Of a stretch of 63,468 bases of DNA, positions 10,597-44,399 are shown piece by piece (position 1 is the stretch's first letter; each line of letters starts with the position of its first letter). Both the position numbers and the translations under genes were made by a program. The stretch lies in contig CM097883.1 in NCBI GenBank assembly GCA_044892505.1, positions 308,822,533 to 308,886,000 of the forward strand, in the 5' to 3' direction. The notes under the pieces were generated by a model. The model ran no database searches. It saw nothing but the letters and a program-made list of their open reading frames with translations, and was not told the DNA's origin. The stretch is from Schmidtea nova. Its lineage: Eukaryota.

Positions 10597-11166
10597 TTAT
10601 ACAATTTGTTCGATCGTCTGGCTCGCTTGGGGTTGAGTTCGGGTCCTCTCGTTGATCATTTGTAGCTCGTAGTGGGTTTGAATGTGGTTGAGATGGCTCC
10701 TTATTCGTTTTTGAGATCGGTTATCTCGTCTGGAGGTTTGGTTATAGATTTTCTGCTTTTGTTTTAGGATTTTTATTCTATATGAGGCGATTAGGATTGT
10801 GATTGCGATGATAGTTGTGCTGACTGCTAGGATTATGATGATTGCTATGATCCATTTCTCTTGATATTCTATTTCAGCTTGGGATAGGCTTTTTATGGGT
10901 TCTCTACCTTCTTTCAGGATTTTTCGGGTTTCTTCTAGTTTCAGTTGTTGGTTATCGAAGATTTGTTGGATTTGATGGTCTTGATTGTGAGGGTATTTCT
11001 GTCGGAATTCGTTGATTTCTTTAATTACTTCTTCGATTAGGCTGTCTACTTTCTGATAGGTTTTGTCGGGTAGAACTCGTAATTGGGTTTCGGTTAGTTG
11101 TAGATCTTCTCTCTGTAGGGTAATGGTTGTTAACCATAGGAGTGTTGCTATTGCGAGCTTTCTCAT
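10597..11166 (-). CDS. 189-aa putative type I membrane protein (signal peptide, helical ectodomain, TM, basic tail)
   Basis: First ATG at 11166 gives MRKLAIATLLWLTTITLQ; TM segment WIIAIIIILAVSTTIIAITILIASY is followed by RIKILKQKQK. Confidence 0.75.
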   Translation of the reverse strand: MRKLAIATLLWLTTITLQREDLQLTETQLRVLPDKTYQKVDSLIEEVIKEINEFRQKYPHNQDHQIQQIFDNQQLKLEETRKILKEGREPIKSLSQAEIEYQEKWIIAIIIILAVSTTIIAITILIASYRIKILKQKQKIYNQTSRRDNRSQKRIRSHLNHIQTHYELQMINERTRTQPQASQTIEQIV

Positions 11167-11241
11167 CTCTTTTATACATCGGTCAATACAGCTTGACACT
11201 TTTTATTTTACATAATTTATTTACACTTGGTTTCCGCACAT

Positions 11242-12303
11242 TTATACAAGGGTTTCGTTGGGTTCGTGAAAACCTTCGTCTTGAGGTTCCACTTGATTTA
11301 TGGGGAGTGGCATCCATATTACCGTGCTCCTCCACATTTCGACTTCTTCTCGGTATGTGTGGGATATCTGGATCTCTTCATCTAATAAGTATTCCAGATA
11401 GTTCGCCTGTTCTGTTAGGGTTTCAATTTGTTTTTCTAGTTCTGCCAATTTTTTCTCTCTCTCTTCCTTCTCCATCATTTCGGTTACTGCTGCTGTGATA
11501 CTTGTTTCTTTTATTGGTATTGGTTTTTCTGCCAACTTCTTTCTCAGTTCTTCGTTTTCTTTTGTCAAATTTGTTATGTTCTCTTCATAACTCTGCCTCG
11601 TTTCTTCCAGTCTTTCTTTAGTTCTTTTTAATTCTATTTTCTTCTGGGTGATCACTCCTTGATATCCATTTATGTCTCTTTTCATGTTTTCTTCCTTGTG
11701 ATTCCACATTCCGGTCAGCATACCTTTTAATTGTTCTTGATTGGCTAAATCTTCTCCCATTCTTTGTACTTGATAAGTTAATTCTTTTATTTTCTTGGCT
11801 TGTTCTCTGATAAATTGTTGTCTTTCTTTACTCCATATTTTTTTTGACGCTTCTTGACTGATCTTTTGCCCTAATTCCTCTTTTAATTCATCGATCTCTT
11901 TAAACAGTTTCCAATCATCGCTGTACGCTGTTCGTTCTATTATCTCCCTTGCTTCCTTGTAAGAGTCTTTCGCCTCTTTCTTCCAATATCTTGCTTGTTC
12001 TGTGATTGACTGAATCTTATGGTCTGTTTTTATTTGTTGTCTATCCCTATCCTCTCGTCGCTCTTTCATCATCTCTTTGTAGTATTCGTTTTGTTGTCTT
12101 AGCAGTTTGTAGACTTCTTCTATTTTTTCTCGACTTCTTTGATTCGTTTTCTCGGCTTCTCTTAGTGCTTGGGTTTGTCTTTCCAATTCCTCCTGTTTTC
12201 GATAATAGGCATGAATCCATATCCCAATCCGCTCCATGTGATTTCTGATCATTTCGTCTTGATGTGCTGTTACTTCTTGTAAGGTTACTTCTATATTTCC
12301 CAT
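11242..12303 (-). CDS. 353-aa coiled-coil protein of unknown function
   Basis: Intact ORF on the element strand, E/K/Q/R-rich with heptad-like pattern, acceptor-like tatAG two nt before the ATG. Confidence 0.75.
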   Translation of the reverse strand: MGNIEVTLQEVTAHQDEMIRNHMERIGIWIHAYYRKQEELERQTQALREAEKTNQRSREKIEEVYKLLRQQNEYYKEMMKERREDRDRQQIKTDHKIQSITEQARYWKKEAKDSYKEAREIIERTAYSDDWKLFKEIDELKEELGQKISQEASKKIWSKERQQFIREQAKKIKELTYQVQRMGEDLANQEQLKGMLTGMWNHKEENMKRDINGYQGVITQKKIELKRTKERLEETRQSYEENITNLTKENEELRKKLAEKPIPIKETSITAAVTEMMEKEEREKKLAELEKQIETLTEQANYLEYLLDEEIQISHTYREEVEMWRSTVIWMPLPINQVEPQDEGFHEPNETLV

Positions 12304-12416
12304 TTCTATAATTACAGATAAAAAGAATATTTAATCATTTTTTATTTTTATTGTTTTTGATTATTTGTTAATTCATATTGTTTCTATACATTTTATTTAC
12401 ATGGTTACTTCCTTCA

Positions 12417-13793
12417 TTACGCCAACCATCCTTTTCTGTCTGTTTTCTCAGGCCTCTCCATCTCTATGTATAGCGTGTCTGCATATAGTCGCTCCCATAG
12501 GTTTTCTTGCCTTATAAACATTGGTTCTCCTGCTGCTAGTCCGCATTCTGTTGTTGGTTTTTCGCTCGTACTCGTATGTTTGTCTGTTTCAAAGAACTTT
12601 TCTACTGGTTTTCCCATACTTTTGATTCTTATAATGACTCCTACTTTCAAGGGCCATTCTATTAGGTCATCGTATTCTCCTTTACATAGTGAGAAGAATA
12701 TTGACACGTGTGTTCCTTGTCCTCTTCCGTCTCCATTTGGGTATACTTTCAATCTTATTTTAACCCCGTTTTTCCATAAATAAAATGGTGGGCTTATTAC
12801 TGCTGTTTTCGTCATATTTCTGGCTTCTGCTAATTTGTCTCTGAAATCAGTTACTTTCCATAGGTAAGGTGCGATTGGTAAGTCCCTTCTTTCGTCAATT
12901 TCTCGTATTAATTGATTATATTGTATTTTCATTCCTTTTCCTAATTCTTCTATGGCTATTATTTTCCTTTCCATTCTTTCGCGAGTTAGTTCAAACTGCT
13001 CTCTTGTTTCTAGTAGTAAACTCATCATTATTTTATGTGATTCTACTTCTTTTTCTAATTTCTGAATTGTCCGTTCCGTTTCTTTAGTCGTTTCGTTTGT
13101 CATTTCCACATGCGTTAGTGCTGCTTCTTCTAGGTGTTGTTTCATTGATTGCCGCGTCCGCTTTTCTTTGCATCCCTGTTTGTTATATGGGCATTCTCTT
13201 GGCCTTTCGGTACATAGTTTCCAATGTTCATGTAATTTTATTTCTTCTGTTATTTCACAATTGTTTGGACATTTACTTACATATTGTCCGCATACTTTCT
13301 CCTCTGTTATATTCAAGTGTTCTTCTTCGATTTTTCTCCTTGTTTCTCGGGCTTCACAATACTCGCATGCGATTTCTTCTTCTTTACATTCTTCCTTGTG
13401 TTGTTCTCTCTTCTTTAGAATTATTGTCTGTTGGCACTTCTCGCATTCGGTTCTTTTCTCCTCGCACTTTTCCATATGGTTTTCTAGATTACTTATTTGT
13501 CCTTGCCATGTACAAGGTGTATTTACGCACTCCGTTGTGGTGCTCATAATTTCTCTTTGGGTTGCTTTGTCCGTTCTGGTTTCGTCCAACGCTATTCCTC
13601 CTTCTTTACATTCTGGGCATGTTGTTATTCCTGTTACATCTAATTCTTGTATACATTTTGTACATATTCTACATCCACATATCGTTTGTCTGGGTTCTCG
13701 TAGTAAATTGTTACATTTTCCGCATGTGAGTCTCTTGCTCCATTTTCTGTTTTCTAGTCTCAAAATTTCGATTATTCGTTCTTCTCTGTCCAT
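12417..13793 (-). CDS. TRAF-family protein (RING, TRAF zinc fingers, coiled coil, MATH/TRAF-C domain)
   Basis: RING CGKCNNLLREPRQTICGCRICTKC...CPEC; zinc fingers CVNTPCTW...HMEKC and CPYNKQGC...H; MATH YLWKVTDF...SPPFY...LKVYPNGDGRGQGTHVSIFFSLCKGEYDDLIEWP (TRAF2/3/5-like). Confidence 0.93.
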   Translation of the reverse strand: MDREERIIEILRLENRKWSKRLTCGKCNNLLREPRQTICGCRICTKCIQELDVTGITTCPECKEGGIALDETRTDKATQREIMSTTTECVNTPCTWQGQISNLENHMEKCEEKRTECEKCQQTIILKKREQHKEECKEEEIACEYCEARETRRKIEEEHLNITEEKVCGQYVSKCPNNCEITEEIKLHEHWKLCTERPRECPYNKQGCKEKRTRQSMKQHLEEAALTHVEMTNETTKETERTIQKLEKEVESHKIMMSLLLETREQFELTRERMERKIIAIEELGKGMKIQYNQLIREIDERRDLPIAPYLWKVTDFRDKLAEARNMTKTAVISPPFYLWKNGVKIRLKVYPNGDGRGQGTHVSIFFSLCKGEYDDLIEWPLKVGVIIRIKSMGKPVEKFFETDKHTSTSEKPTTECGLAAGEPMFIRQENLWERLYADTLYIEMERPEKTDRKGWLA

Positions 13794-13885
13794 TTTCTAA
13801 AATAATATATACATTCGACTTGTCATTTATTTTTGGTTTTTCTTGTTTTTATTTTTACATATTTACAGTTTTCCGCTTTATTTAT

Positions 13886-14242
13886 CTATGGCTCATTCGT
13901 TGAATCTGGTTCCGCTTCGTTGGTTAATCTATTTATTACCCAACTCATCCATCCTTCTTCGGATCCTTCTCTTTCTCCTCGTGTTAAATGGTTTATTTCT
14001 ATTGCTTGTCTTTGATTGGTGTTGCTTATCGTTTGATTTTCTCTGGTGAGTTCAGTTATCGCTCTTTGTTGTTCCTCTATTCTGTGTAATTGTTCGAAAC
14101 AGTTGTTATAACTTTCTGATAATAACATTTGTCTTTCCGCTAATTGGTTCTGTAATGAGTTGACTGTTCGTACTAATAAATCACATTGTGCTTTCCATCT
14201 CATAGCCATAGTTATTTCAGTTGTTTCGTCCTGTTCGGTCAT
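13886..14242 (-). CDS. 118-aa coiled-coil protein of unknown function
   Basis: Intact ORF between longer cargo ORFs, acceptor-like tttAG three nt before the ATG. Confidence 0.65.
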   Translation of the reverse strand: MTEQDETTEITMAMRWKAQCDLLVRTVNSLQNQLAERQMLLSESYNNCFEQLHRIEEQQRAITELTRENQTISNTNQRQAIEINHLTRGEREGSEEGWMSWVINRLTNEAEPDSTNEP

Positions 14243-14290
14243 TTTCTAAATTATATACATCATTTACTTTGTTTTTCTAGCTTTTTACAA

Positions 14291-14322
<32 letters not shown>

Positions 14323-14389
14323 ATCGATACCCATACTATTACGGTAATGCTTTGTTATTTACACTATTATTTACAGTCATAATCCGCCC

Positions 14390-17300
14390 CTATACCATCA
14401 TTATCGTCTTTTCCTCGTATCGTTCGTCATCTTCTATTTGTTTCCAGAATTCTTTACCTTTCGTTCTTCTTTGGAATTCTTTCTGTATCTCTTCTGGTAT
14501 TTCTATTCTTTGTTTCATAATTTTAATATCTGGCCATTGTATGGCTGTCGCTTTGTTTCTCTTTCTGTATCTCCAATATATTATCATGCTTGTCGTCATT
14601 ATCCCATATGCTATTAATATTCCTATGCTAATTAATCCTATTACTGTTTTTCCACGGTTTGTTTCTCCTTTATTCTGGTTCGCTTTTATCTCATTTTGGG
14701 TTTGAGCCTCTGGCTTCCTCTCTTTCTGTATTTGATTCTTGACTTTGTTCATTACTTCTTGTGTAGACCAATGGCGGTTTAGTAGTTGTTTGACGTTATT
14801 TTCTTTTGTTCGGTTTTCCACGTTTCCTGGTTCGATCTGTTGTTGTAGTTTCTCTGAGATCTGATATAATCCGCATTCTGGTTTTTCTGAACCTTTTCTG
14901 GTGAAGGTACATATCGCGTATGTCCTATTTACTTCCATTTTCTTTAATTCGACTTTTTCTTTATTCTTTATTTCTTTACAGTGGGTTAGGTTGTCTTCTT
15001 CCCCTTCTGGGTTATGCTTTGTCCAACATATTCCTTTAACTGTCTGATCGAGTCCTGTTAATGTCAGAGTTCTTTCTGTCTTTGTTAATTCTTCTTCATC
15101 GAATTTCAGTATCTCTCCTTTTTGGAATGTCTTGCAATGCTCTATTCCCTCTTGGATTCCTCTCTCCCAGATACATATACTTCCTTCTTCATTCATTTGT
15201 ATTTCTTGTATTTCGATTTCCTTGTTTGTTCGTGATTCGTCGCTTGTCTGAACTTGGTATTCCTTCCTTGGTTCGTTGTATGTTCCCCAGCATAGTTTGT
15301 TGCTACTTGTTTTCCTTATTGTTATGGCCATTTGTTCTATTATTATTCCTTTATCGATACGTTTGGACATTGCTAGTATTAATGCAATGCATACGCACTC
15401 CTGTTGGGGTGATATTCTTTCTCTCGTTTTATTGGTGCTCCTCTCCCCTTCTCTTGGTTTGTTCGTTGTATTTTCCTTCTGAGTTGCTGGTCGATCTATT
15501 GTGTTTTTGATCTCTTTCTTTGTTGGTTTTACTTTGTACCACTCAAGTCTAGGTGTTTCATATTTTTGGCATACGACTGTCTTAGGTAGCCCTGACTTCT
15601 TTTCCTTTCCTATTATACATATCCGATGCATGATTCCTCTGTCCATCCCTTCTATTCGTACTATATCCTGGTTGGATTTTCTGACTATACATTTTAGTGG
15701 GTTATCTTTCCCAATTGGTTCATCCTCTCTATTCCAGCATATTTTCTCGACCTCCTGGACATTTACTATTTTTATCCCTGCTTGTAGGTTTGTTGCTTCT
15801 TCCCTATTGATTAATGTTAGTATTATTGTTAGACCCAACCATTTTGAACTCTGCGGTAGGCTTCTGGTTCGCCTTTCATATTTTTTCTCTTCTCCTTTAA
15901 TCTCTTTTATTTCCTTGTCTTTGTTGTTTATTCCTAGTTTTCCGCTTTTTGCTTCTTTCTTTTTTGGTTCTTCTCGTGCTTCTTCTTCTAGCATTTCCAC
16001 TCCATGGCTTGTACTGTCTCTATTTGTCCATTGGGTTACCGATTTCTTTGGGTTTATCTTGCGTATCCATATAGCTGATAACGCGATTATTACTGGTATG
16101 GTCGCTGTTAATATTCCTAAGCCGATTAGTTCTTTAATTTCTTTATTCTCGTCTGTTTGTATAGGTTCGCTTTGGTTGAACATTATTCCGTATTGTCCCT
16201 TTAGTTTTCTCATTAATTGTTCTCGTTCCTCTTGCTTTCTTTTGACTTCTTTGATAACTTCTTCGGGTGTCCATTTTGCTTGAGGGTCGGTTATTGTTTT
16301 TTCTGCGTCCATTTGTTCATTCGTTTGGCTTAGTTCCCTGAATTCGAGTTTCCTTGTTATTCCTTTTGATGTTGCGTTTACTGGTGTATAGTAGGTTTCG
16401 CATCTTTCTTGTTGGTTTTCTAGTGCGTCCGTTTTTTCTATTGTACATACTTCGTACTCGCTATTAAATTGTAGTCTTTCGATCTTGATTTCTTTATTTG
16501 TTTTTCTGCACTCTCTTGATTGTCTTCTTATATATTTCTGGACTAGTATCCAACATATCTCCAATGTTTTATTCTCTATTTTCCATAATGTCAGAGTTGC
16601 TGATGTCTTTTTCTCGGATTTTGTCGTAACTTCTTGGCTTATCGGTTGTTTATTGTTTTTAAAGGTAGTGGTGTACTTCGGTTTCCCTTTGTTTCGTTGT
16701 CTTCTTTTATTTTTTCGTGTTAACGTTTTAGTTCTTGTTCCGGAGGAAGTGGTGTATATTCCGCATTCAAGATCGTTTATCGTTATCTGATCATTTTTCT
16801 TTACCAGACATATTTCGTAAGTTTGTTTACTTTCTAAACCTTTTATTTGTATCGTCGTTGCTCCTGTACTTGTTCGACATTGTGGTGTCTTTCTTTCATT
16901 CGTCTCTTTTTCGTACTTCCTCCAGCATACTCCTTTCACATTTGGTTCTATTTCTTTTATTTCTAATGTTATGTTTATTTTCCGCTTGATTTGTTTATTT
17001 CTCTTCCTCGTTCTCCTTCCGAACTTTATTACTTCTCCGGGTTGAAATGTTTTACATTTTGTGGTACCTTTCTTGTTTGTCTCTTTTTCTAATAGGCATA
17101 GTTTGTACATCTTATCTGCTTTTACTTCGGATACTTTAATTACTTTGTTTGTTGTTGGTTTTCGACTTTTCCTTATTTCATTTACGCCGATTTCCTCGTT
17201 ATTCCTCGCCCAACATTTTATGTTAGTATTCTGTGTATCTTCTACTTCTGTTATTGTCATAGTTTCAATTTCTATTCCTTCCTCTAATCGTTTTATTATT

Positions 17301-17473
17301 ATTAGTATGAGTGCTAAGCATAATACTTCCATTTGGTAAGACACTCTTTCGGTTTCGTTTGTGGCAACTCTTGCTTCGGGTCTTTTTATTGTAATTCGTA
17401 TAGTTGGTGTTGTTTGCTTATCTATTACCTGGGGTTTTTTGTTTTCTGTTCCCTGTGTCTCTGTATGCAACAT
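14390..17473 (-). CDS. 1027-aa membrane protein with six Cys-containing FN3-like repeats and two TM anchors; probable frameshifted continuation of the polyprotein
   Basis: Repeated motif CW-x(n)-I.I.GL...Y.IC-x13-15-C. TM segments LIGLGILTATIPVIIALSAIWI (about 16064-16135) and VIGLISIGILIAYGIMTTSMIIYW (about 14573-14645). Overlaps the end of the 4633-aa ORF. Confidence 0.8.
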   Translation of the reverse strand: MLHTETQGTENKKPQVIDKQTTPTIRITIKRPEARVATNETERVSYQMEVLCLALILIIIKRLEEGIEIETMTITEVEDTQNTNIKCWARNNEEIGVNEIRKSRKPTTNKVIKVSEVKADKMYKLCLLEKETNKKGTTKCKTFQPGEVIKFGRRTRKRNKQIKRKINITLEIKEIEPNVKGVCWRKYEKETNERKTPQCRTSTGATTIQIKGLESKQTYEICLVKKNDQITINDLECGIYTTSSGTRTKTLTRKNKRRQRNKGKPKYTTTFKNNKQPISQEVTTKSEKKTSATLTLWKIENKTLEICWILVQKYIRRQSRECRKTNKEIKIERLQFNSEYEVCTIEKTDALENQQERCETYYTPVNATSKGITRKLEFRELSQTNEQMDAEKTITDPQAKWTPEEVIKEVKRKQEEREQLMRKLKGQYGIMFNQSEPIQTDENKEIKELIGLGILTATIPVIIALSAIWIRKINPKKSVTQWTNRDSTSHGVEMLEEEAREEPKKKEAKSGKLGINNKDKEIKEIKGEEKKYERRTRSLPQSSKWLGLTIILTLINREEATNLQAGIKIVNVQEVEKICWNREDEPIGKDNPLKCIVRKSNQDIVRIEGMDRGIMHRICIIGKEKKSGLPKTVVCQKYETPRLEWYKVKPTKKEIKNTIDRPATQKENTTNKPREGERSTNKTRERISPQQECVCIALILAMSKRIDKGIIIEQMAITIRKTSSNKLCWGTYNEPRKEYQVQTSDESRTNKEIEIQEIQMNEEGSICIWERGIQEGIEHCKTFQKGEILKFDEEELTKTERTLTLTGLDQTVKGICWTKHNPEGEEDNLTHCKEIKNKEKVELKKMEVNRTYAICTFTRKGSEKPECGLYQISEKLQQQIEPGNVENRTKENNVKQLLNRHWSTQEVMNKVKNQIQKERKPEAQTQNEIKANQNKGETNRGKTVIGLISIGILIAYGIMTTSMIIYWRYRKRNKATAIQWPDIKIMKQRIEIPEEIQKEFQRRTKGKEFWKQIEDDERYEEKTIMMV

Positions 17474-26400: not shown

Positions 26401-29400
26401 CCATTGATCTTGTCTCTTTTCGTCTTTATTTCTTACAACTACAGTTGCTGGGTCTGTCTTAGGTCTACCTCTAGGTCGTTTATCCATTCCTGTACCTGTT
26501 TCCACAAACCTTGTTGCTCGTCCGGTTTCTTCGGTGACATCTCTTGGTTCGTTAGCTCTTTCTTCTAACCATCTTTCCATTTCTTGTGTTAATTGTACAT
26601 TTTCGACATTCGCTCCTCTTGTTTCGTCTTCTGTTAGATCGTTTACTTCTTCTATTATTATTTCTTCTTCGACTTCTGCTTCTCCGGTGTTGGTTACTTG
26701 TATTGTCGTAGGTAGTTCTTGTATTCTTTCGAAAATGTTATCGTCCTTTTCCCTTGTTAATTCGGTTAACTCTTCTATCATATCGTCGCTATCCGTTAAA
26801 ATTTCGTCCACGTCGTATGGTTGTGGTGGAGTCCTTTCTCTGGTTCCTCTGGGTGTTGTCTCAGATCGTCTTGAACTTGTCCCTGGTGTTAGTACTGATT
26901 TCATCGGGCTTGGCGTACTTATACTTCCGTGTGGTTTATGGTTTTCTTCTTTACGTTTCAATGGTTGACCCGCTATTGCTTCTACTGTCAAGGTATTCAT
27001 GAGGTCTAATTGTGCTGGCGTTATTCCGATTTCCAAACTGTTATCTAATGATCGTCCTTGGTGTTGTAAATGGAATGGTGGTTCGTATCTCAATTTCTTT
27101 TTAATATCTCGAATTTTTTCTGCTATTCCTACCCACAACTCTTCCTTATCCTTGTTTGGGTATATTATTCTTAAATGTACTTTCTGTGGAATTTCCTGCG
27201 AGAATTCTTGATTTCTCCATTTCCTAATTACGTGGTCTAGTTGTTCCGGACACCACTCGTTAACTCTTTTATATTCCGCGATTGCTTTTGCTACTTTACG
27301 CAAGCATGTTATATCTTCCCCATTTACCACGAAAAAATCTGCGAGACCCTTTATTACTTTTCTCTTACCGTGCGCATTAGTTTTTAATATTTCGACAAAT
27401 TCTTCCGTTTTTTGCTTTTCCCTTTCTAACCACATGGCCGCTGTTTCTGGTCCATCTAGGTCTATTGGCGTAGCTTTCCTTGTTACCATGCAAACTCTTC
27501 CTATCTCTGGTTCGCAGTCATCTTCAATTCCTCTTTTATATTCTTCTTCATATTCCCCTTCTTTTGGTTCCCAACATTTTCCTTTCTCGTTCCATTGTTT
27601 TTCTCCGGGTGTTCGTATTCGTCGGTTGAGATTGAGTTCTTCTAATACATTTTCCCATTCCGGCCGAATTCGCCAATTTCGATAGATGTCTATTATTTGT
27701 TGTAATTTGCGCACAACTTCTTTCCGTCGTTCCCGTTCTCTTTTCTCATCTTTAGCAGTTTCCCTTGGTGTATCGTCCATTCTGCTAACGTGGATTGTTT
27801 GGTGATTATCCCATATACCGATTTTATATAATCGTCTCTCATCGTGATCCCATAATACATGTTCGTTGTATTGTATGATTATGTCGTCTTCCCATTCGTC
27901 TTCTGGTTCTCTTTGCACTAGTGTCTCGTTGATGACATTTATTAATTCCTTAATGGTGCAATCCGCTACCACTTCGATTTCTTTGGTGTCCTCATTAGGT
28001 AATTCTACCGAAATCTTTAGATCTGTTATTTTCCCTTGTCTAAACATTGTTTTTCCCATTTTTGCGATTAATTTGTCGTGTGAGATCTGTGACCATCTCG
28101 TGTGGCTTGTGTCACGTATGCACTCAATACATCGTTTCAATTTCTCGTATTCGCTTCTCATTAATTCTTTTCTATGTTTTTTGACTTGTGGTATGATTTG
28201 TTCTATCAGGGAATTTAGATTCTTTCGTAAGACTCGTTCTTTCTCGTATTCTAACCGAGGTTTTATTCTCTTTTCGAAGCACGTGTTTGCTTCTCTTGCA
28301 ACTTCTTGTAGGTTCTCTTCTTCCTTTTCATCACATATTGATAACAGAGTTATTTCTCCTGGCCATATACCTGTTTCCACTAAGTGCGTTCTTTTCTTTA
28401 CGAGTCTATTCTGCGAATAGATGAATTTGTTTTTATATGAGCTCCCTAGTCTATCCTCTACCCATCTGTAGATATCGTCTGTAAATGGAGTTTTGATCCA
28501 GATTCTTGGTGTAGATGTATTTATTATTATTGAGATGGTGTAATTGAGGAGTGGTTCCTCTATTAATTTCCCTACGTATCGATTCAACATGTCTACTTCC
28601 CGGTCTTGTAACCATTCTTTGTAGTTCATTTGTAATAATGCTTTCATGAATTTCCGATATTGTTTCTTGTCCATGAACTCTTCGTTATATATTACTTCTA
28701 GCGAGTTATCTAGTAATTTCTGGATTTCATCTACTTTTATCTGTGTAGGTTCTGAGGTCTTTATTACTTCTCTCTCTTTATTTTCATCTTCGGATTCGTT
28801 TAATATGTCTCCTGCTAGGCTACTGATATCACTATCTTCTTCTTCATCGGAAAACTCTCTGGTGGTATTTCTTAGCATATTAATATGTGCTATTTGGTTC
28901 GTTTCTCCTTGTATATTCTCCGTTGGTTCTGGTTCGTTTTTGTCAATTTCTGGTGTTGGTTCACTCTTGTCCTCTATTACTTCGACTTTTCCCATTTTCT
29001 TTCCCAACTCGTCTATCTCTTTTAAACGTCTTCTTATCATTTTTCCTTCAAATATTCGCCGGATTCGGGTTTCGTGACGTATTGGTGGTGGAATTTCTTC
29101 TGGTTTTATTTCTTTAATTCTCATCACATTTCTTTTTGTCTCTGTTACTCCCACGTTTTCCCATGTATCTGTTAATTTTAATTTTACTGATGGTGCATCT
29201 CCTATTTGTAAGAACGCTTCTCTGGGCAGTTTTGTCACTCCTGGAATCATCTGGTTTACTTTATTGAACAGTATTTCCACCTTTTCTTTTGCGTTATATT
29301 GGAATCGAAACATATGGTCGTTGGGCATGATTACCATCATTCCTTTTTTCCAAATTTTTCTTCTCTCTTCTTGGTTTATCTCAGTTTCCTCTCCCTTTTC

Positions 29401-31326
29401 TGCTTCTTTTTCTACTTCTTTATCTTTTTGTACTATTTCTTTTCGACTTTCGTTGTCGGCTGGATTCGGGTCTATCGAATTCATTTCCAGTGTGGTTTCT
29501 TCCTCGCGAGTGTCTGTTTGGTTTATTGCTCTTAACATGTTAATTCTTAGAGGTTGTCGCTCTCTTTCTTGCTGTTTTTGTTCATCCTCTCTTTGTATTC
29601 TTGCCCATTCCTGAGCGTGTCGTGCTTGACTTTCTCGATTCAATCGTTCGTTTTCGCTTTCTATTTTTCTCATCATGCTAATTTGCTGTTGATTGGTTTG
29701 CGGATTTCCTCTCGTCGTATTGTTTATAAGTTCCGTCAATCTTTGGACTTCTTGCATTAAATGTATTTCTTTGGGGGTGGTTTTGTTCTGATTATTGTTA
29801 TTATTGACTTGTTGGTTCCCATAATCTGGTCGGTTTACGGTATTTGCTTGATTTCCGTAATTTGGTCGGTTCCCATTACTCTGCCAGTTTCCTCGTTGAT
29901 TACTTTTTTGTCCGCAATTTCTTGAATAGTGACCAGGTCGTCCGCAATTAAAACAGATTATTGTAGAACATCTGCTTTCCGAGTGTCCTTTGACTCCACA
30001 TTTTCCGCAATTCAAATTTTGATAGCATTCTTGCTGCCAGTGTCCCAACTTCCCGCATGTTTTACATTGTTTTGTTTGTCCTTGAGGGTTGTAATTGTTT
30101 TGGTTTCCAAAGTTCTGCACTTTATTTCCTTCATTCCTTCGTTGAGGGGGTGGTCGGTTTAATTGTTGCGAATTTGGAATGTGATTGTTGAGATTTACCT
30201 CTGGTTCGGTTTGTGCTGTGTCCATGGCTAAATAAATTCTGCCCTCACTTCCTATCATATGCAATTCAAATCGGTTAGCTGTTTCTAACGCTTGATCTAT
30301 GGTTTTGCATCCTTGACATCCTACTTGCGCTCTTATGTCGGGTCTTCTTAGTCCTCCTATGAAGATAGCTGCCATTAACTCCTCGTTTATTGGGCCTCCA
30401 TCCTTGAATACCGATTTTGCTAATTTTTTCAGTTCGCTCGCGTATACCGCATTAGATTCATTCATCTTTTGTTTCCTCATTGAGAATTCTATGAATGCCT
30501 CGCTTAGCACTTTATTTATTCCAAATGTTTGTTGGAAAAAATCCTTTATCGCTGTCCAGCTTGTAGGTGGATTGGTACCATTTTTCGCTTCCAAATATAG
30601 GTCCAATGCACTATCTTTCAAATATAACTGAATTCTGCTTACCGTTGTTTCAGCTTTCCATTTGCATACTTCCACGAATATGCCAAATTCTTTTAAAAAG
30701 GTTTCTAATTTACTCGCATCTCCGTTAAACGGTTCTCCTGAAAATTTATCCTTTATTTCTTCTCTTGGTTCACCCATTTCAATTCCGCTGTCTTGAGTTA
30801 TTTTACTTTCGTTTCCTCTTGTTTCTAGTTCGTTGTTATGTTCGTCTTCCGTTTTACTCGAGCTTGAATCGCTTTCTGTTTCTCTTATTCCTTCGTTATC
30901 TGATATTATACTTTCGTTATCACTCGCGTTGATTTCTATCTCTGGTTCTACCTCGTTTTCTACTTCTTCGATATTATCGTTGTTAGTTTCGTCGATTTCT
31001 CCTTCTTGTTCTATCTCGTGTTCTATTTCTTCGATATTATCGTTATTAGTTTCGTCGCTCTCTATTTCACTTGCTTGGTTCTCCTTGGGTTCGGCTTGGT
31101 TTTCTTTGTTACTTGAGCTGTTGCTTACTATTGACAATTTATCGTTTTCGGTAATCGATTTATCTCTTATTATTTTCCTCGATTTACTCCCTTGTGGGTT
31201 ATCTTTGCCGACTTTCTGCTTTTTTGTTGATTTTGTTGTAGTACTAGTTTTGTCTTTTTTATTATTGTTGCTACCGACTTTCTTTTCCGTTGGCTTTACT
31301 ACGACACTCTTTGCTCCTTTTCTCAA
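17425..31326 (-). CDS. 4633-codon Gag-UBL-Bcl2-Env-PR-RT-RNaseH-IN-ankyrin polyprotein
   Basis: Single uninterrupted frame with the motifs listed as sub-features. The track start is TTG; the first ATG is at 30777. Confidence 0.95.
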   Translation of the reverse strand: MRKGAKSVVVKPTEKKVGSNNNKKDKTSTTTKSTKKQKVGKDNPQGSKSRKIIRDKSITENDKLSIVSNSSSNKENQAEPKENQASEIESDETNNDNIEEIEHEIEQEGEIDETNNDNIEEVENEVEPEIEINASDNESIISDNEGIRETESDSSSSKTEDEHNNELETRGNESKITQDSGIEMGEPREEIKDKFSGEPFNGDASKLETFLKEFGIFVEVCKWKAETTVSRIQLYLKDSALDLYLEAKNGTNPPTSWTAIKDFFQQTFGINKVLSEAFIEFSMRKQKMNESNAVYASELKKLAKSVFKDGGPINEELMAAIFIGGLRRPDIRAQVGCQGCKTIDQALETANRFELHMIGSEGRIYLAMDTAQTEPEVNLNNHIPNSQQLNRPPPQRRNEGNKVQNFGNQNNYNPQGQTKQCKTCGKLGHWQQECYQNLNCGKCGVKGHSESRCSTIICFNCGRPGHYSRNCGQKSNQRGNWQSNGNRPNYGNQANTVNRPDYGNQQVNNNNNQNKTTPKEIHLMQEVQRLTELINNTTRGNPQTNQQQISMMRKIESENERLNRESQARHAQEWARIQREDEQKQQERERQPLRINMLRAINQTDTREEETTLEMNSIDPNPADNESRKEIVQKDKEVEKEAEKGEETEINQEERRKIWKKGMMVIMPNDHMFRFQYNAKEKVEILFNKVNQMIPGVTKLPREAFLQIGDAPSVKLKLTDTWENVGVTETKRNVMRIKEIKPEEIPPPIRHETRIRRIFEGKMIRRRLKEIDELGKKMGKVEVIEDKSEPTPEIDKNEPEPTENIQGETNQIAHINMLRNTTREFSDEEEDSDISSLAGDILNESEDENKEREVIKTSEPTQIKVDEIQKLLDNSLEVIYNEEFMDKKQYRKFMKALLQMNYKEWLQDREVDMLNRYVGKLIEEPLLNYTISIIINTSTPRIWIKTPFTDDIYRWVEDRLGSSYKNKFIYSQNRLVKKRTHLVETGIWPGEITLLSICDEKEEENLQEVAREANTCFEKRIKPRLEYEKERVLRKNLNSLIEQIIPQVKKHRKELMRSEYEKLKRCIECIRDTSHTRWSQISHDKLIAKMGKTMFRQGKITDLKISVELPNEDTKEIEVVADCTIKELINVINETLVQREPEDEWEDDIIIQYNEHVLWDHDERRLYKIGIWDNHQTIHVSRMDDTPRETAKDEKRERERRKEVVRKLQQIIDIYRNWRIRPEWENVLEELNLNRRIRTPGEKQWNEKGKCWEPKEGEYEEEYKRGIEDDCEPEIGRVCMVTRKATPIDLDGPETAAMWLEREKQKTEEFVEILKTNAHGKRKVIKGLADFFVVNGEDITCLRKVAKAIAEYKRVNEWCPEQLDHVIRKWRNQEFSQEIPQKVHLRIIYPNKDKEELWVGIAEKIRDIKKKLRYEPPFHLQHQGRSLDNSLEIGITPAQLDLMNTLTVEAIAGQPLKRKEENHKPHGSISTPSPMKSVLTPGTSSRRSETTPRGTRERTPPQPYDVDEILTDSDDMIEELTELTREKDDNIFERIQELPTTIQVTNTGEAEVEEEIIIEEVNDLTEDETRGANVENVQLTQEMERWLEERANEPRDVTEETGRATRFVETGTGMDKRPRGRPKTDPATVVVRNKDEKRQDQWELCLRKLNKIAEMKEKETTPICQGEEWISKTIMEILAIIDPELRKYWRLTEISEKAKSLHSAIAPILPEFIKEKTKSNHLDWQGTTTLIKKLTEGAETDNKYVIAIAYTIYNLLTLSRGRPKPTALERHIKNTAKIIAREIEPYVINKGGWETFIKTNQKKTQAKNMKKKFEKILEELEKEQTGTGNAKSSMNLSSIIMMMLIWMISTDSATAFKVFDCDQMKLGEKYSLRGTEQCKDATPVELQKIKKEQWYHVYQEAELIKTMVNECKVQKTRFAFYCGRGHYSAIVMPGTEREPIVLQGEDCEALFKHGEVTTRDKIKIRGKPGMMMQQTYYVAGRITGGEGYCQGETYPIFGVPATNLVVMDTYIVELKSYEAFFEPTTGEMKTLSMCKIDRSMCQTGMSTLVYKPKVNECQLQLLQGAKFDEIQGKTFQEEDDDDKDRAKHLKEALENKRQLKPDHREKRIEMRATPTVLITTNQDVGMRFIKGKATLKCSTTVYETNYPGIYVSKQEVPNAKPKIDTMDIKLHLYVNNKMDFLFHRGQASLQKVYYNLINNDCILNREILKTKLAVAITNPDSAMPLLPLREGHFGRVVGEAMYVYICEKTHASLAATTQLKPGTCTNELEIDYKGKVRYVQPVTRIINPPGFEPNPFNCSNAYGPLYQKPDGKWVMFPGRSEVIAPREFELMQLSKDRQFSDVDVSNNGIYSPKDLEAARQNILFPARREALLSNIVTITGGTDYRERPNYELLLSPAHFKKATENMMKAMWGRFLIFGQMMAGILGVILIIQIVRVIITQMLACFDIYKREKKVNWKMVVGFLPFLAKTMVLHGHSKDIHRIKRLLKILAKMKGTDEEVGRKFKKIRNDEQARQQLKKERKGLWERMKGYKTQNDSSDDDDDDDDYKGGQVYKNQAPQYIEKNPADAWKCYAPPPTMYQEPLQGGKNNTMQMMPMTNVYPMIPEDYKMRRCRSVDPQGDTHTIAVMSSNTGPVLTTTIEINGREIEAMIDTGANISAIDIKWIPQEQRREIERTNVHVIACSKEVVEVAGRWWVKIRHLNTEIDTYVAVIPALSVPCIIGTDLMPALFKEIVIDLGTMRLKDRTGQICAIEAKVTSSKQMIIPARKEKICYVKIDPTIQGDMIFEPSKRFEKRKALPMARGLVNINDDGEIPINVVNFDEEDKIIYENERLGKLTPMMDIELPIEGAEKDKEPTWNIDSELLNEDQKKQLEKLLIEYKDIFAASDLDLGTCDVTLHTIPLTDETPIALRPYKLAEAQKAVAEAEVKKMLDAEVIEPSCSPWQFPVVMVKKKDGTQRFCIDYRRLNTVTKRDTYPLPDINEMLLTLQGAAYFTSLDLKSGYWQIKMKEEDKEKTAFTIGRDLYQFRKMPFGLTNAPASFQRCMNFVTHGIKQCMVYIDDLLIYSSTFEQHIQDIRDVFVRLRQWKLKLKPSKCDWAKEKVTFLGHIVSAKGKEPDPRNIDKVKECPVPKTIIQIQEFLGLCGYYRKFIKDYAGIAKPIQELVKKDVSFIWGDEQQTAFETLRDKLITAPILVHPDFKKPFLLATDASGYAAGAVLGQYDDEGKERVIGYYSRTFKKHEKNYSVTEREALAIILAIKHFKYLLWGHIICITTDHQPLVWLGQHKETSSRLMRWAMQLQEYSPDIKFKSGKANANADCMSRLTFPELTDPDVQRICVLIAEDLDFSELKKDQQEDKELGQIIEFLTSRNMEAFKDNKELKEHIGKYQHRYIINKGWLLIQDGEKRLMCLPENRRKEIMIQYHDGKLGGHMSEKKTINRMRQKYYWRTMEEDIKEWIKNCLTCATRKDSGKKWKNPLQPMPIPAEPMTTIAMDVIGPLPESLNGNIYILVITDYLTKFPEAFAMQDQKAKTVAKILVEEICCRYGTPKQILTDQGTNFMSELLNEVTNYFRIAKLRTSPYHPQTNGQTERFNGTLIRMLSNYVSRHQTDWDEYIKLCLMAYRMSIHAATKLSPFQLMYGRECNMPIDLEYQPPLSQYMEDDDYVTKFKERMQEIWKTAELNIKFYQESYKDLHDQKKNVKANDLKPGDWVIIETPEIIPGTVKKLQRPGRGPYEIIYKKDNNVKVKLINRPLIRPIYVNTCRCKKVPKTITTTPENRIITRSQTARINMLRANATEDDKEEIRQKEIRNKEIILKAREIMGRWHVKDEAGISRDIRHIISRYAQGLPTEPIISELLEKIPEILLLKDVGGQPALHNAIECKNMERAKEFLKIAKETNQNLDIGNREQETPLMTAAIHQADKEMIDLLIKAHFSWTERDREDKTVLNHVIWSSHQPMLKYIIANCTWEIDELVKRDIIKEAIKIGKCNTIRKLIKWKRPEDDTWVLDINEVYSEGQNALLRYLLKFTCDQKTLLTLLDRGNINITKNEEEYKFDKEKEALFNKIRKWCAKPLDKLITYKDINNFNEKYQTIVSEYEELVKILNHPEKCKQVLEKKERESNKKLTPLFKAEAPYQARLDAIQEKAKELLPEFENSKHALEILGALVEKVHAYAKGTYNGNDIVIIKKEMPVTFLLPKDGIMPIHRALRNGKDRKVMEIARVMLNCGSNMNMIDEKGDTLMVFAARAKTKTKVLEELYKAGAGLTGKTDKDNSILDVALLTHNWEMVNFIKTVPNQEEIDHLTDSVKKPSVLAMMNNVELTESILTWINPNTNEPAFRINKFTEHNQNWCIRSALITYKWPEILKMFMERKDLRITTSPKEEKYTGKWKELMKTYINNWIKAKKEILEYKSTNKVIPEQVETQEFEASNLTTLAYAKLIEEINVEDDIFDEPGGDDNTDSDDGNNSENSNDHEPPDKEENERKDKKRDKEEKKSEDEKQRDEDGEQGKNVQGDKNDTQRTGYKSTIKPFFKPELLLLTMIITLINPSQGMTCEERAIIQIKNAKGIERVCWSKKDKITEQNSPMDCRISKHEQEIIEINDLDLNTWYKICTVRKQKHPRSHNTIACCIQRHREQKTKNPR
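17470..17755 (-). other. Polyprotein C-terminus: signal-like hydrophobic segment plus first FN3-like repeat
   Basis: ELLLLTMIITLINPSQG then RVCW...IIEINDLDLNTWYKICTV...IAC, paralogous to the unit after WLGLTIILTLIN in the 1027-aa ORF. Confidence 0.65.
18400..19740 (-). other. Ankyrin repeat region C-terminal to integrase
   Basis: GGQPALHNAI, QETPLMTAAI, DKTVLNHVI, IMPIHRAL, KGDTLMVFAAR and DNSILDVAL, spaced as ankyrin repeats in two clusters. Confidence 0.85.
20030..21100 (-). other. Integrase (HHCC zinc finger, DDE core, GPY/F)
   Basis: YHDGKLGGH...CLTC; MDVIGPL; TDQGTNF; HPQTNGQTERFN; GRGPYEI. Confidence 0.95.
21370..22680 (-). other. Reverse transcriptase and RNase H
   Basis: RFCIDYRRLN, LDLKSGYWQI, MPFGLTNAPASFQR, YIDD (22153-22164); TDASG, EREALA, TDHQPL. 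Confidence 0.97.
23130..23436 (-). other. Retropepsin aspartic protease
   Basis: IEAMIDTGANIS (DTG at 23371-23379) and CIIGTDLM. Confidence 0.93.
23900..25827 (-). other. Class III fusion-type (chuvirus/herpes gB-like) envelope glycoprotein, about 640 aa
   Basis: Signal-like IIMMMLIWMISTDSATA, then FKVFDC...YSL...C, FYCG, GYCQGETY, DCILNREIL...NP...GEAMYVYIC, CTNEL...YVQPVTRII, GIYS, and TM WGRFLIFGQMMAGILGVILII. This matches the cysteine/motif pattern of chuvirus-like glycoproteins as I recall it. Confidence 0.8.
25931..26322 (-). other. Bcl-2-like domain
   Basis: BH2-like IEPYVINKGGWETF; degenerate BH1 region DNKYVIAIAYTIY; helical pattern of the expected length. Confidence 0.7.
26974..27180 (-). 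other. Ubiquitin-like fold 3
   Basis: LRIIYPN...EKIRDIKKKL...FHLQHQGRSLDNSLEIGI...TLTV parallels ubiquitin TIENVKAKI...LIFAGKQLEDG. Confidence 0.55.
27781..28020 (-). other. Ubiquitin-like fold 2
   Basis: LKISVELPNEDTKEIEVVADCTIKELI...IIIQYNEHVL...LYKIGIWDNHQTIHV. Confidence 0.65.
29113..29340 (-). other. Ubiquitin-like/UBX-like fold 1
   Basis: MMVIMPNDHMFRFQYNAKEKVEILFNKV...LTDTWENVGV...VMRI. Confidence 0.45.
29914..30777 (-). other. Gag capsid-like domain plus three CCHC zinc knuckles
   Basis: FNGDASKLETFLKEF...LYLKDSALDLY...RKQKMNES...FIGGL; CKTCGKLGHWQQEC, CGKCGVKGHSESRC, CFNCGRPGHYSRNC. Confidence 0.93.
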
Positions 31327-31936
31327 GGGGATTACTTTTGTATACTCAATTTTCCTGTTCTATCTCTTATCGTTTTCTGATTCTTCTTGCTTGATTGATT
31401 GATTTGATTGATTTGTATATCTAAAATACAAAGGTCCTCAACGATACATTATTGTTATCGTCGCGCTTTTATTCCCTTTCTTTCGGGATTACTTATTACT
31501 GGGTTTTCATTATTTCCCAATTCCCAGATTCCCCTTTATTTTTAGTCTATTTAAATTATCTATAGACTGGTCACAATTATCTATTTACGTCGTAATAATT
31601 ATCTATGTTTTATCAAATCGATTACTTTTCCCACAGTTTCCCAATTATTGGTCGCTCGAGCGCTCTAATTCCCTGAGTCTTTCTGACTCGTTTATCATTA
31701 TTTTATCATTTCTATTCATTATTCCCTGCTAGCAATCGTTTTACTCATTCTGCCGGTGGCTCCGGTCAGCTCAAATCTCTACTATTCTCCTTGCATGCTT
31801 TACTTAAGGTTGCATAATCAGCTTTACTCGCATTCTCTTAACTACTAGTGCGCACTACTCTAAATTTCGTCGACGATTATACTATGGGTCTATATTCCCT
31901 CTGTTACTATTTATCCGGATATCTCTATAATTCACT

Positions 31937-32191
31937 ATGGCTCTTCTGGCCTCAATTTTATATCTCACATGGCTCTATTGGCCTCATTTTACTATCTCAA
32001 ATGGCTCTATTGGCCTCAATTTAATCTCTCAAATGGCTCTATTGGCCTCAATTTAATCTCTCAAATGGCTCTATTGGCCTCAATTTAATCTCTCAAATGG
32101 CTCTATTGGCCTCAATTTAATCTCTCCAATGGCTCTATTGGCCTTAATTTAATCTCTCAAATGGCTCTCTTGGCCTCAATTTAATCTCTCC
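31937..32191. repeat. Tandem array, 8 x 32 bp
   Basis: Unit atggctctattggcctcaatttaatctctcaa starts at 31937, 31969, 32001, 32033, 32065, 32097, 32129 and 32161. Confidence 0.95.
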
Positions 32192-32232
32192 ATAACGCCT
32201 AGCTAGGTCATTCAATAAGGCTCATTGGCCTC

Positions 32233-32527
32233 AACCCTTTTTTTCAAGGGACAAACCGCTAATAACCCTTTGTTTCAAGGGACAAATCTCATAACCCTTT
32301 GTTTCAAGGGACAAATCTCCTAACCCTTTGTTTCAAGGGACAAATCTCCTAACCCTTTGTTTCAAGGGACAAATCTCCTAACCCTTTGTTTCAAGGGACA
32401 AATCTCCTAACCCTTTGTTTCAAGGGACAAATCTCATAACCCTTTGTTTCAAGGGACAAATCTCATAACCCTTTGTTTCAAGGGACAAATCTCCTAACCC
32501 TTTGTTTCAAGGGACAAATCTCCTAAC
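32233..32527. repeat. Tandem array, about 10 x 29 bp
   Basis: Unit taaccctttgtttcaagggacaaatctc(c/a) with period 29 from 32263 to 32523, plus a variant first unit at 32233. Confidence 0.95.
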
Positions 32528-33003
32528 TTTGCTTAACCGGTTAATTATAATTCTTAACTTCGCTAGCGATTAATATTTCTCAGCTGAGTTATAACTACTT
32601 CTATGCGAGCTGACTATGCACCTTTTATTATTTCAACACTATCGTTTATTTCTTTGTTCTATTATAACTATTTCCTGATCCGTCTGCTTCAACTTTTTAT
32701 TTATTTTTCTCTATGCGCGCTTTACTCCATCAAGATTTCCCTATTTCTCTCCCCAACCAAAATATACAAAAAGATCGCGTTGGTCCATTAATGCAGGATG
32801 TGGTGATCAATCACATCACAAAAACTTTCCAACATTTGCGATGGGCCCCTTTCTATACACCCTGACTAGGTTGATCAATCGGTACTTCCCAATGGATTCT
32901 TATCGGACTACTTTGCAGTAGCTCAAAAATTATTTATATATGACAATTGTACCCATGATTTCCCCATTAATAAATCCATAAAATTCCATTCAAATTTTAT
33001 TTA

Positions 33004-33465
33004 TTATAAATATACAATAATTTTATCGTCTATCATCAGGTTGCACATAGGACATAGGTCGCACTTGCTGGCACATATTTTACAAAAACGAAAATGTCCA
33101 CAAGGTAAAAACATAATTTGTATCTCGCTATCCTCACATATATAGCACTGTCGGTATTTTTTCGCTGCTTCTACCCCCTGCGCCCTCCATCGATTGTATG
33201 TTGGGGTTAATCGTTGTTCTATTTGCCTGCACTTAATGTTTAGTTCTGCATTTTCTAATCGTGCTCTGTACCATTTGTAGCGGGTCTCTATGTCGATTTT
33301 TCTTGTCCTTTCTGTTATCTTTATTAATTCATCTGTTTCCTCAGTCTGTGTTGTGGGTTCCTGAAATTCAATTTCTCTAAATCGGTTTATTTTCTTGCCA
33401 ATCGTTTCTAATGTTTCGCTTTCTGTGTTGAGAAATTCTTCAATTTCTTTCAGTTTTTCCTCCAT
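33004..33465 (-). CDS. 153-aa coiled-coil plus C-terminal IAP-type RING finger protein (no BIR domain)
   Basis: CYICEDSEIQIMFLPCGHFRFCKICASKCDLCPMCNLMIDDKIIVYL parallels the cIAP/XIAP C-terminal RING and ends at the C-terminus. Confidence 0.85.
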   Translation of the reverse strand: MEEKLKEIEEFLNTESETLETIGKKINRFREIEFQEPTTQTEETDELIKITERTRKIDIETRYKWYRARLENAELNIKCRQIEQRLTPTYNRWRAQGVEAAKKYRQCYICEDSEIQIMFLPCGHFRFCKICASKCDLCPMCNLMIDDKIIVYL

Positions 33466-33772: not shown

Positions 33773-33790
33773 ATCCCGGCTGAGCCCCCA
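33773..33790 (-). promoter_or_regulatory. Primer binding site, tRNA-Pro type
   Basis: Minus strand TGGGGGCTCAGCCGGGAT matches the classical tRNA-Pro PBS TGGGGGCTCGTCCGGGAT at 16/18. Confidence 0.85.
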
Positions 33791-34264
33791 AATTTATGCT
33801 GGGTTCATGGAGGGGTTAGATGAAAAATGTTCTAACAATGACTAGGGATCCCTCATCCATGATCATGCATAAAATTGCAATTTTACACTCAAGCGCCCTT
33901 GATTATTTCCCTATATAATCAAGTTGGTGATGCGCAGGGTGGTTAAACAATGATGGGCAGGTGAGCACTATCGCTAGTACTACTCCCCATTTATGTTTAC
34001 GGGTCCATTGCTGCCGTTAGAAGGACTTATGCTTTAATCATCCACTTATGTATTCCGTGTTAATCTTTCAGAAAATTTATTTTTATCATTACCCAGTCTG
34101 CGAGAAGTATCTCAACGAATGCTCGCTTAATTATTTAATTATCTCTATTCGGTATTTGGTAAAATAAATTTACACTTTTGTTCTATCTTTATCTAATCAT
34201 TGGTAAAGTTAATTAAATCAATTTAAATGAACGATAAAATTCTTAAGCCAATACAACAATTTAT

Positions 34265-34861
34265 TTAATTTTTAATTAGTTCGGTAAAAACTCCCGCCGG
34301 AGGAAAAATCTCCGTCAATAATGCCTCCCCGGTCATCTGATGTAGACCATCGACTTGGATTTGTAATTGCTGGGCAAATAATTTTCTCTGTCTTCGCCGT
34401 TTCTGCCCAATGCGCTTGCGTTTTTGGTGCGTATTCGCCGATGAGGTGGTTGAATTTGCTGCAGGAGCTGTCTCATTCCGACTTTCGATTAGATCTGCGA
34501 CATCCGTGCCTATGGAATTCACAGTCTTCTTTTCTGATGTCCAAGCTTGGTACGTAACCGGACGGATTTGCTCTCTGAGCTCCTTCTCAATATATGAGGC
34601 AGTTACGGAATGGAGGCATTTTCGGAGTTCTATCTTTGTAGCCTCCCATTCCATTTGATAATCGGCTGCCGTCTGTTGGGCGCGCTCGGTTTTACTGATT
34701 TGCTCCTTCATTCGGGCCGGAGCAAACCAGCTTTTGCGCAAGTATGCAATCTGTGCCTCTGCTTTGATCAATTGTGCCTTGAGGAGACCCACTTCCTTGT
34801 CCTGGGCCCTCCGAATCCGCCACATCTTCTCCAATTCTCTCTGCATCAAATCGGGGTTCAT
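34265..34861 (-). CDS. LTR ORF-B, 198 aa, coiled coil plus basic NLS-like patch
   Basis: Intact ORF containing KRKRIGQKRRRQRK; tatAG one nt before the ATG. Confidence 0.65.
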   Translation of the reverse strand: MNPDLMQRELEKMWRIRRAQDKEVGLLKAQLIKAEAQIAYLRKSWFAPARMKEQISKTERAQQTAADYQMEWEATKIELRKCLHSVTASYIEKELREQIRPVTYQAWTSEKKTVNSIGTDVADLIESRNETAPAANSTTSSANTHQKRKRIGQKRRRQRKLFAQQLQIQVDGLHQMTGEALLTEIFPPAGVFTELIKN

Positions 34862-35047
34862 TCTATAATTTATTTAGGATATTTACTCTATGATTTAATT
34901 ATATGAAAATTAAAATCTGATCATAGGATTATTAGGTCACGAATATGAACTATTAAAAGGTGAAACAGAACAACAATAAAAAAAAAACAAAAATTCACTA
35001 ATGAACTATAATATTTTAATACAATTTCAACATTGGTTAATCAGTGT

Positions 35048-44397: not shown

Positions 44398-44399
44398 GT

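Follow-up and report, generated by a model that had tools for sequence, protein, structure and literature searches.

Purifying selection on the TRAF, IAP-type RING, ankyrin and predicted Bcl-2-fold cargo of a giant Burro-type retroelement in Schmidtea nova

Introduction

The giant long terminal repeat (LTR) retroelements known as Burro are the closest described relatives of the element analyzed here, which lies in a 63,468-nt stretch of the Schmidtea nova genome (assembly GCA_044892505.1, contig CM097883.1, positions 308,822,533 to 308,886,000 of the forward strand; hereafter the window). Burro1-4/GYPSM1 of Schmidtea mediterranea and a Burro-like element of Dugesia tigrina resemble the window element in their length of ~30 kb, in a single polyprotein ordered gag, ubiquitin-like (Ubl), BCL2, envelope (env), protease (PR), reverse transcriptase (RT), RNase H (RH), integrase (IN) and ankyrin, in a mononegavirus-type env and in MATH/TRAF cargo (PMC6431247). 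The MATH, BIR, ankyrin, BCL2 and Ubi/SUMO cargo and the in-frame env of Burro are already in print, as is the proposal that Burro meddles with apoptosis and ubiquitination (PMC6431247). The available portions of PMC11410931, PMC13238120 and PMC8797187 hold nothing on cargo, and our literature search returned no report of selection, satellites or splicing in Burro; Jurka 2007 and Grohme 2018 may describe accessory open reading frames (ORFs) or deleted families.

We assign the window element to the Burro kind by this published description. Its TRAF forms a complete gene of its own, downstream of the polyprotein, whereas the corresponding cargo lies inside the polyprotein in Burro1 and upstream in D. 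tigrina; BIR, reported for Burro1-4, is absent from the window element but present in a related family, family C; and a doubled ankyrin block, a tail with FN3-like repeats and transmembrane (TM) helices, and coiled-coil ORFs go unnamed in the available Burro account (PMC6431247). An earlier model-made reading of the window (the original prediction) had seen at 10597-33465 a coherent TNFR/NF-kB/apoptosis-modulating toolkit carried by one retroelement. What is new here is a selection test on the cargo and the finding of a high-copy, non-autonomous family that keeps selected TRAF, BIR-RING IAP and ankyrins.

Results

The window element is a Gypsy LTR retroelement of the Burro/GYPSM1 kind, ~29.6 kb long, and positions 10597-33465 are its interior. 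The window copy lies on the minus strand and spans 7854-36899 (29,046 nt, the 3' LTR being shortened); we call its family A and related families B to E. Its main features, in the order of its own strand, are as follows.

33797..36899, minus strand: 5' LTR, 3103 nt, TG...CA
33004..33465, minus strand: 153-aa protein with a helical N-terminus and an IAP-type RING, no BIR
29878..30777, minus strand: Gag with CCHC knuckles, start of the polyprotein (Pfam; Retrotrans_gag match in family E)
26923..28572, minus strand: three putative ubiquitin-like segments
25903..26427, minus strand: predicted Bcl-2-fold domain with a BH3-like helix in front; BH2 GGW kept, BH1 NWGR not
23878..25761, minus strand: env in the polyprotein frame, Monjiviricetes-type fusion glycoprotein with TM segment (E 1e-69)
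20098..23421, minus strand: PR, RT, RH and IN
18238..19857, minus strand: two duplicated ankyrin blocks fused behind IN
14390..17760, minus strand: polyprotein tail with signal-like segments, seven FN3-like repeats and two TM helices
13886..14242, minus strand: 118-aa coiled-coil ORF, conserved in families C and D
12417..13793, minus strand: full-length intronless TRAF (RING, zf-TRAF, coiled coil, MATH)
11242..12303, minus strand: 353-aa coiled-coil ORF of no known family
10597..11166, minus strand: 189-aa ORF with a signal-like segment and a single TM helix
7854..10393, minus strand: 3' LTR, ~560 nt missing in the window copy

Pfam recognized CCHC knuckles, a Monjiviricetes fusion protein, PR, RT, RH, IN and ankyrins in a 4450-aa ORF; the polyprotein reads gag-cargo-Bcl-2-env-PR-RT-RH-IN-ankyrin-FN3, with accessory ORFs besides. 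As in Burro/GYPSM1, env sits between BCL2 and PR within a single polyprotein, the element is giant (~30 kb, multi-kb LTRs, high copy), and the set of BCL2-like, Ubi/SUMO-like, ankyrin and MATH domains is present, BCL2 by indirect and Ubl by weak matches. No dUTPase-like domain was matched by Pfam between PR and RT, where the printed Burro claim rests on HHpred. The LTRs of the window copy differ by 1 mismatch in 2540 nt. Sister copies have complete LTRs, and in the 15 of 18 in which both were compared these are 99.0-100% identical; 4-nt target duplications flank all seven sisters with both ends visible. At least 92 TRAF copies, 95-100% identical, were scored in the 1.25-Gb genome, a lower bound. 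Together, these results show that the window element belongs to a young, many-copy kind of enveloped giant Gypsy retroelement of the Burro type, and that its insertion was recent.

To follow the cargo across copies, we ran an RT search, which listed 39 copies besides that of the window, and used 18 of them (rows 2-19); chosen by RT, these were not chosen for cargo. Gene order was constant in these 18 sisters, and the RING, ankyrins and env were found in every one. Within the fetched range, the TRAF was present in 17/18 and the last two ORFs in 16/18; one sister lacked the last two ORFs in range, another lacked part of the Ubl/Bcl-2 region, and in one an insertion shifted four ORFs out of range. 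We then computed the pairwise ratio of nonsynonymous to synonymous differences (pN/pS) over the 19 copies. The replication core gave 0.03-0.08 (PR-RT-RH-IN, 0.03-0.06; gag, 0.08) and the cargo 0.08-0.41: Ubl, 0.08-0.14; Bcl-2, 0.13; ankyrin blocks, 0.16 and 0.19; TRAF, 0.21; RING, 0.29; FN3 tail, 0.41; 118-aa coiled-coil ORF, 0.16; 353-aa ORF, 0.12; and 189-aa TM ORF, 0.36. Every upper limit was below 0.55, while nine noncoding controls gave 0.84-1.67 and off-frame readings 2.4 and 3.4. Selection across copies had been named beforehand as a check, and it is purifying. Since the cargo is constant and under purifying selection, the objections that it evolves neutrally or is inconsistently present across sister copies both fail. 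The cargo serves a function for the element.

Family C separates a benefit of the cargo from copying, as its TRAF, IAP and ankyrin have outlasted the replication genes. This high-copy family lacks gag, Bcl-2, env, RT, RH and IN but retains ORFs for RING, Ubl, PR, ankyrin, TRAF, a BIR-RING IAP and coiled coils, plus several secreted-like ORFs. The Ubl-PR-ankyrin junction was the same in 8 of 10 fetched copies, none of which had core genes in range, and none of the 149 scored ankyrin copies (the best 149 of 3809 candidates) lay in a frame longer than 1098 aa. In nine junction-verified copies, pN/pS was 0.19 for TRAF, 0.32 for IAP and 0.17 for ankyrin, with controls at 0.82-1.18; the Ubl and FN3 parts were near neutral (0.75 and 0.71). 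A relative of the 118-aa coiled-coil ORF in family C gave 0.12 in frame. The LTRs of families C and E are 94-97% identical and their common coding parts 66-77%, and the leader is also common to both. An unsampled autonomous parent of family C may exist.

Family E is autonomous and, as in Burro1, holds MATH inside a polyprotein of ~4990 aa; the stretch from polyprotein to 3' LTR was free of TRAF and IAP in all 10 long-frame copies sampled. A second recurrent deleted class, with a frame of ~1350 aa, belongs to this family and comprises RING, an IN core without zinc finger, ankyrin and FN3-TM. Family D has the gene order of family A and is 92% identical to it in RT/RH but 30-68% in cargo; across families, the cargo is conserved with identities of 30-65%. 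Env is 97% identical between A and D (window 23878-25761) and the flanking cargo 46-68%, and because of this disparity env was likely exchanged recently between the two. The smaller family B (gag-Bcl-2-env-pol, ~3070 aa; RT 46-48% identical) already has a BH3-like helix and Bcl-2 immediately ahead of env, which may make Bcl-2 the oldest cargo.

The TRAF placed at 12417-13793 by the original prediction was fully borne out: Pfam found MATH (E 1e-20), zf-TRAF and RING, the nearest solved structures are TRAF3/5/2, and the protein shows all the hallmarks of a TRAF. It resembles TRAF2/3/5 and the expanded planarian TRAFs in RING, zinc fingers, coiled coil and MATH, with a MATH identity of 30-44% to host planarian TRAFs; unlike those, it is intronless, lies inside an element and has a RING histidine replaced by cysteine. 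In a MATH tree with 15 of 30 host loci (the others were identical or too short), four element MATH domains formed one clade (87/94, not starred), and no donor host gene was singled out among the 15. The tree suggests that the TRAF was likely acquired by one capture. Host TRAF/MATH genes are densely clustered, many in tandem, at ~405-455 Mb on contig C2. We rejected a captured poly(A) as the origin of the A27 run at 14291-14317, since this run is 22 nt shorter in 10/18 sisters.

For the 33004-33465 protein, the top 10 PDB rows were XIAP, cIAP1/2 and ML-IAP (E 9e-10 to 1e-7). The IAP-type RING assigned to it thus stood, but not a full IAP, since none of the seven ORFs of the window element contains a BIR domain. 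It has the C-terminal IAP-type RING of XIAP/cIAP and baculovirus IAPs and lacks their BIR, whereas the family C protein combines BIR and RING as they do. In mammals, the BIR of cIAP is the part that binds TRAF2; a RING protein without BIR therefore leaves the TRAF2-cIAP interface missing. A TNFR-like receptor or clear TRAF-binding tail among the TM proteins was rejected, as these held loose short motifs only. Nothing usable came from the Atlas for the 353-aa ORF.

The Bcl-2-fold domain was approached through relatives. The domain at the same position in family B passes the Pfam Bcl-2 cutoff in some copies, and a profile of families A/D/E matched it with a probability of 93.8 (E 1.7e-7), the match taking in a hydrophobic helix. 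Modeled from an 11-row alignment (predicted local distance difference test score [pLDDT] 70; 45 from a single sequence), the region matched Bcl-2 proteins with Z 13.8, root-mean-square deviation 2.8 and 136 aligned residues, and the top Foldseek matches were exclusively Bcl-2 proteins (E 3.5e-3), support that is partly circular because 4 of the 11 rows are host Bcl-2. Cellular, herpes and African swine fever virus (ASFV) Bcl-2 proteins (Z 11-13.8) ranked above N1L, A52, B14 and A46 (Z 6.6-8.2). A homologue search with the region found none, and the Atlas gave nothing usable. The model and the family B match support the prediction that the window element carries a Bcl-2 fold. The hydrophobic helix is placed as follows.

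25762..25818, minus strand: hydrophobic segment, same position in families B, D and E

This segment is likely the env signal peptide and the Bcl-2 tail anchor in one. The predicted fold is shared with viral Bcl-2 proteins (ASFV A179L, BHRF1 and Bcl-2 of Kaposi's sarcoma-associated herpesvirus) and poxvirus Bcl-2 folds; unlike viral Bcl-2s, the element domain lies inside a polyprotein, has a degenerate BH1, an extra BH3-like helix ahead and an anchor apparently shared with the env signal.

The predicted ankyrin repeats were recovered as two duplicated blocks behind IN (~19198-19857 and ~18238-18897). IkB, p105 and Bcl-3 were absent from the top 60 PDB rows in two ankyrin searches, though kinship is possible all the same; a profile run against 1.8 billion proteins returned long generic repeat proteins only, and the region has no DSGxxS degron. 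That degron is a feature of cellular IkB, and viral IkB mimics often lack it. The proposed ubiquitin-like folds are plausible and the FN3-like membrane proteins tentative, both on weak but consistent matches: a joint profile of the three Ubl segments hit a redesigned ubiquitin (E 4.5e-4) and one relative's segment hit Rad60-SLD (E 8e-4), while among the seven C-W...C...C repeats the best Pfam fn3 match had E 0.01 and 6/7 weak PDB rows were FN3 proteins. The 1027-aa "membrane protein" that had been read as a gene of its own is the polyprotein tail, which a deletion private to the window copy, near 17,460, has split off; read-through from the polyprotein is seen in 16 of 17 scorable sisters and in family D.

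The accessory ORFs are accompanied by putative expression signals.

11167..14389, minus strand: four spacers, 75-147 nt, rich in TGTA/TGTAAATA and AATAAA
33617..33622, minus strand: conserved splice-donor-like site in the leader

Three of the four spacers end with an acceptor-like YAG just ahead of the next ATG. A YAG lies within 6 nt of the ATG in 18/21 accessory ORFs of families A, C and D versus 105/571 other ATGs (P 1e-10). TGTAHATA occurs 7 times in the 427 nt of the spacers but is missing from 18.8 kb of coding sequence; AATAAA reaches 21 per kb, versus 3-5 in the comparison. At 33622, GT follows the donor motif in 80 matches and a non-G in one; this single match is a point change, and we rejected it as a spliced genomic copy. 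These signals fit cis-splicing from the leader donor or operon-type trans-splicing. Schmidtea possesses operon-type trans-splicing (PMC10899757), the subgenomic RNA of Caenorhabditis elegans Cer1 is cis-spliced and SL1-trans-spliced (PMC3315495), and spacer lengths in the spliced-leader trans-spliced operons of Macrostomum peak near 100 nt (PMC8629364). Accessory ORFs behind acceptors are common to the element, complex retroviruses/foamy-like endogenous retroviruses, Cer1 and Macrostomum operons; unlike in Cer1 and Macrostomum, splicing in the window element is deduced from sequence alone.

The remaining features of the element are the following.

33773..33790, minus strand: primer-binding site, which we take to be tRNA-Pro-like
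31937..32527, no strand: two tandem arrays in the leader, with 32-nt and 29-nt units

Two protein-coding ORFs of no known family lie within the LTR (35048-35527, pN/pS 0.28; 34265-34861, pN/pS 0.21), also in the 3' LTR; they evolve under purifying selection and have relatives in families B, C, D and E. An ATG-less open frame at 30778-31359, in frame with gag, spans 173-197 codons in 17/18 sisters (pN/pS 0.57) and 100-121 codons in families D and E; an acceptor-like site lies near it at ~31421. Elsewhere in the window, 43050-48085 holds another Gypsy-like element, an ordinary one of 5 kb, whose 308-nt LTRs are 99.7% identical and whose pol frames are broken. Two long inverted repeats whose arms lie ~6 kb apart (663-968/7352-7657 and 55653-55869/61997-62213) are probably DNA transposons, and one arm lies ~200 nt from the truncated end of the 3' LTR. 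A short ORF at 58400-58732 looks by eye like the GIY-YIG endonuclease of Penelope-like elements.

Discussion

We favor, with moderate confidence, the reading that the TRAF, IAP-type RING, Bcl-2 fold, ankyrins and Ubl/FN3-like parts are kept by purifying selection and would blunt ubiquitin-dependent stress signaling and cell death in the expressing cell. The polyprotein would be cut by signal peptidase and the element protease, and the env signal helix would thereby stay on the Bcl-2 fold and anchor it in the membrane. Accessory ORFs would be made from spliced subgenomic RNAs, with an acceptor ahead of the ATG and a 3'-end signal behind the stop. TRAF and RINGs may target the host TRAF-TAK1-p38/TBK1 axis, rather than an NF-kB/IkB switch, as decoys or as E3 ligases and, with the membrane-anchored Bcl-2 fold and IAP-type ligases, would most likely shield the expressing cell. 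TRAF-TAK1-p38 control of apoptosis is documented in planarians (PMC4993586), host TRAFs govern apoptosis and cell survival (PMC7586133), and BURRO1 is transcribed upon PIWI loss, mainly in differentiated and intestinal cells (PMC8532177).

Several observations weigh against this reading. Selection shows usefulness, not the target pathway, and the IN remnant in the ~1350-aa class has a pN/pS of 0.11 (5 copies), so recombination with autonomous copies can import a purifying signal. The window element has no BIR. The Bcl-2-like domain that the original prediction saw at 25931-26322 is upheld by the sister-family profile and the model, but the window copy gave no direct Pfam or PDB sequence match, BH1 NWGR is not retained (family B is closer to canonical), and the element profile against host Bcl-2 alone reached a probability of 1.6. 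RNA interference (RNAi) against BURRO1 did not improve the smedwi-2 phenotype and was neutral at best (PMC8532177).

The element families might, more tentatively, form a bipartite consortium in which autonomous Burro helpers supply Gag, Env and Pol, and an LTR-sharing, cargo-only satellite adds the full TRAF and BIR-RING IAP missing from the helpers, all from spliced, operon-like cassettes and against a host cell-death response to retroelements; we hold this to be rather unlikely. A role of much of the cargo in the particle cycle instead of in defense, with ligases and Ubl taking part in budding and turnover, ankyrins providing an integrase tether and FN3-TM mediating attachment, we consider unlikely. 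The Gag-Env-Pol polyprotein includes Bcl-2, Ubl, ankyrin and FN3 as domains, which therefore would be made alongside particle proteins, the ankyrins are fused to IN, and env is an intact-looking fusion protein; yet family C retains selected ankyrin, TRAF and IAP without gag, env or IN, and we know of no assembly role for TRAF, BIR or Bcl-2.

The theme of cell death and ubiquitin in the original prediction is reasonable, the cargo being real, constant and selected, but its NF-kB link found no support. In its most specific form, such a link would be a counterdefense kit like those of large DNA viruses, in which TRAF and RING rebuild TRAF2-cIAP, ankyrins mimic IkB and the Bcl-2 fold acts like poxvirus A46/A52/B14/N1. 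Planarian RHD-ankyrin proteins do exist, and a related ankyrin domain occurs in a planarian nidovirus (PMC6211748). A nonapoptotic Bcl-2 fold would agree with the degenerate BH1, and N1L, A52, B14 and A46 are among the fold matches; these rank, however, below cellular and herpes/ASFV Bcl-2. With no BIR, no degron and no IkB in the top-60 lists, and with planarian NF-kB homologues that are divergent and of unclear immune role, one of which had no role in the TBK1 response when tested (PMC13563047), a coherent TRAF2-cIAP-IkB-NF-kB module was not supported, and we regard such a kit as quite unlikely. It is very improbable that the cargo favors the carrying neoblast in cell competition through survival and proliferation signaling rather than countering an anti-retroelement response: cargo-only satellites at no fewer than 149 scored young copies do need a benefit independent of replication enzymes, and host TRAFs regulate cell survival (PMC7586133), but after PIWI loss it was mostly differentiated and intestinal cells that were seen to express BURRO1 (PMC8532177), and a benefit common to all genomic copies would hardly select single ones.

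The idea that Burro interferes with apoptosis has so far been a remark on domain names, and the selection test makes it a supported premise. Counts of host gene families can also be inflated by the numerous TRAF, BIR and Bcl-2 copies that such elements carry. In a host in which RNAi is routine, whether animals kill retroelement-expressing cells, and whether retroelements fight back, becomes directly testable.

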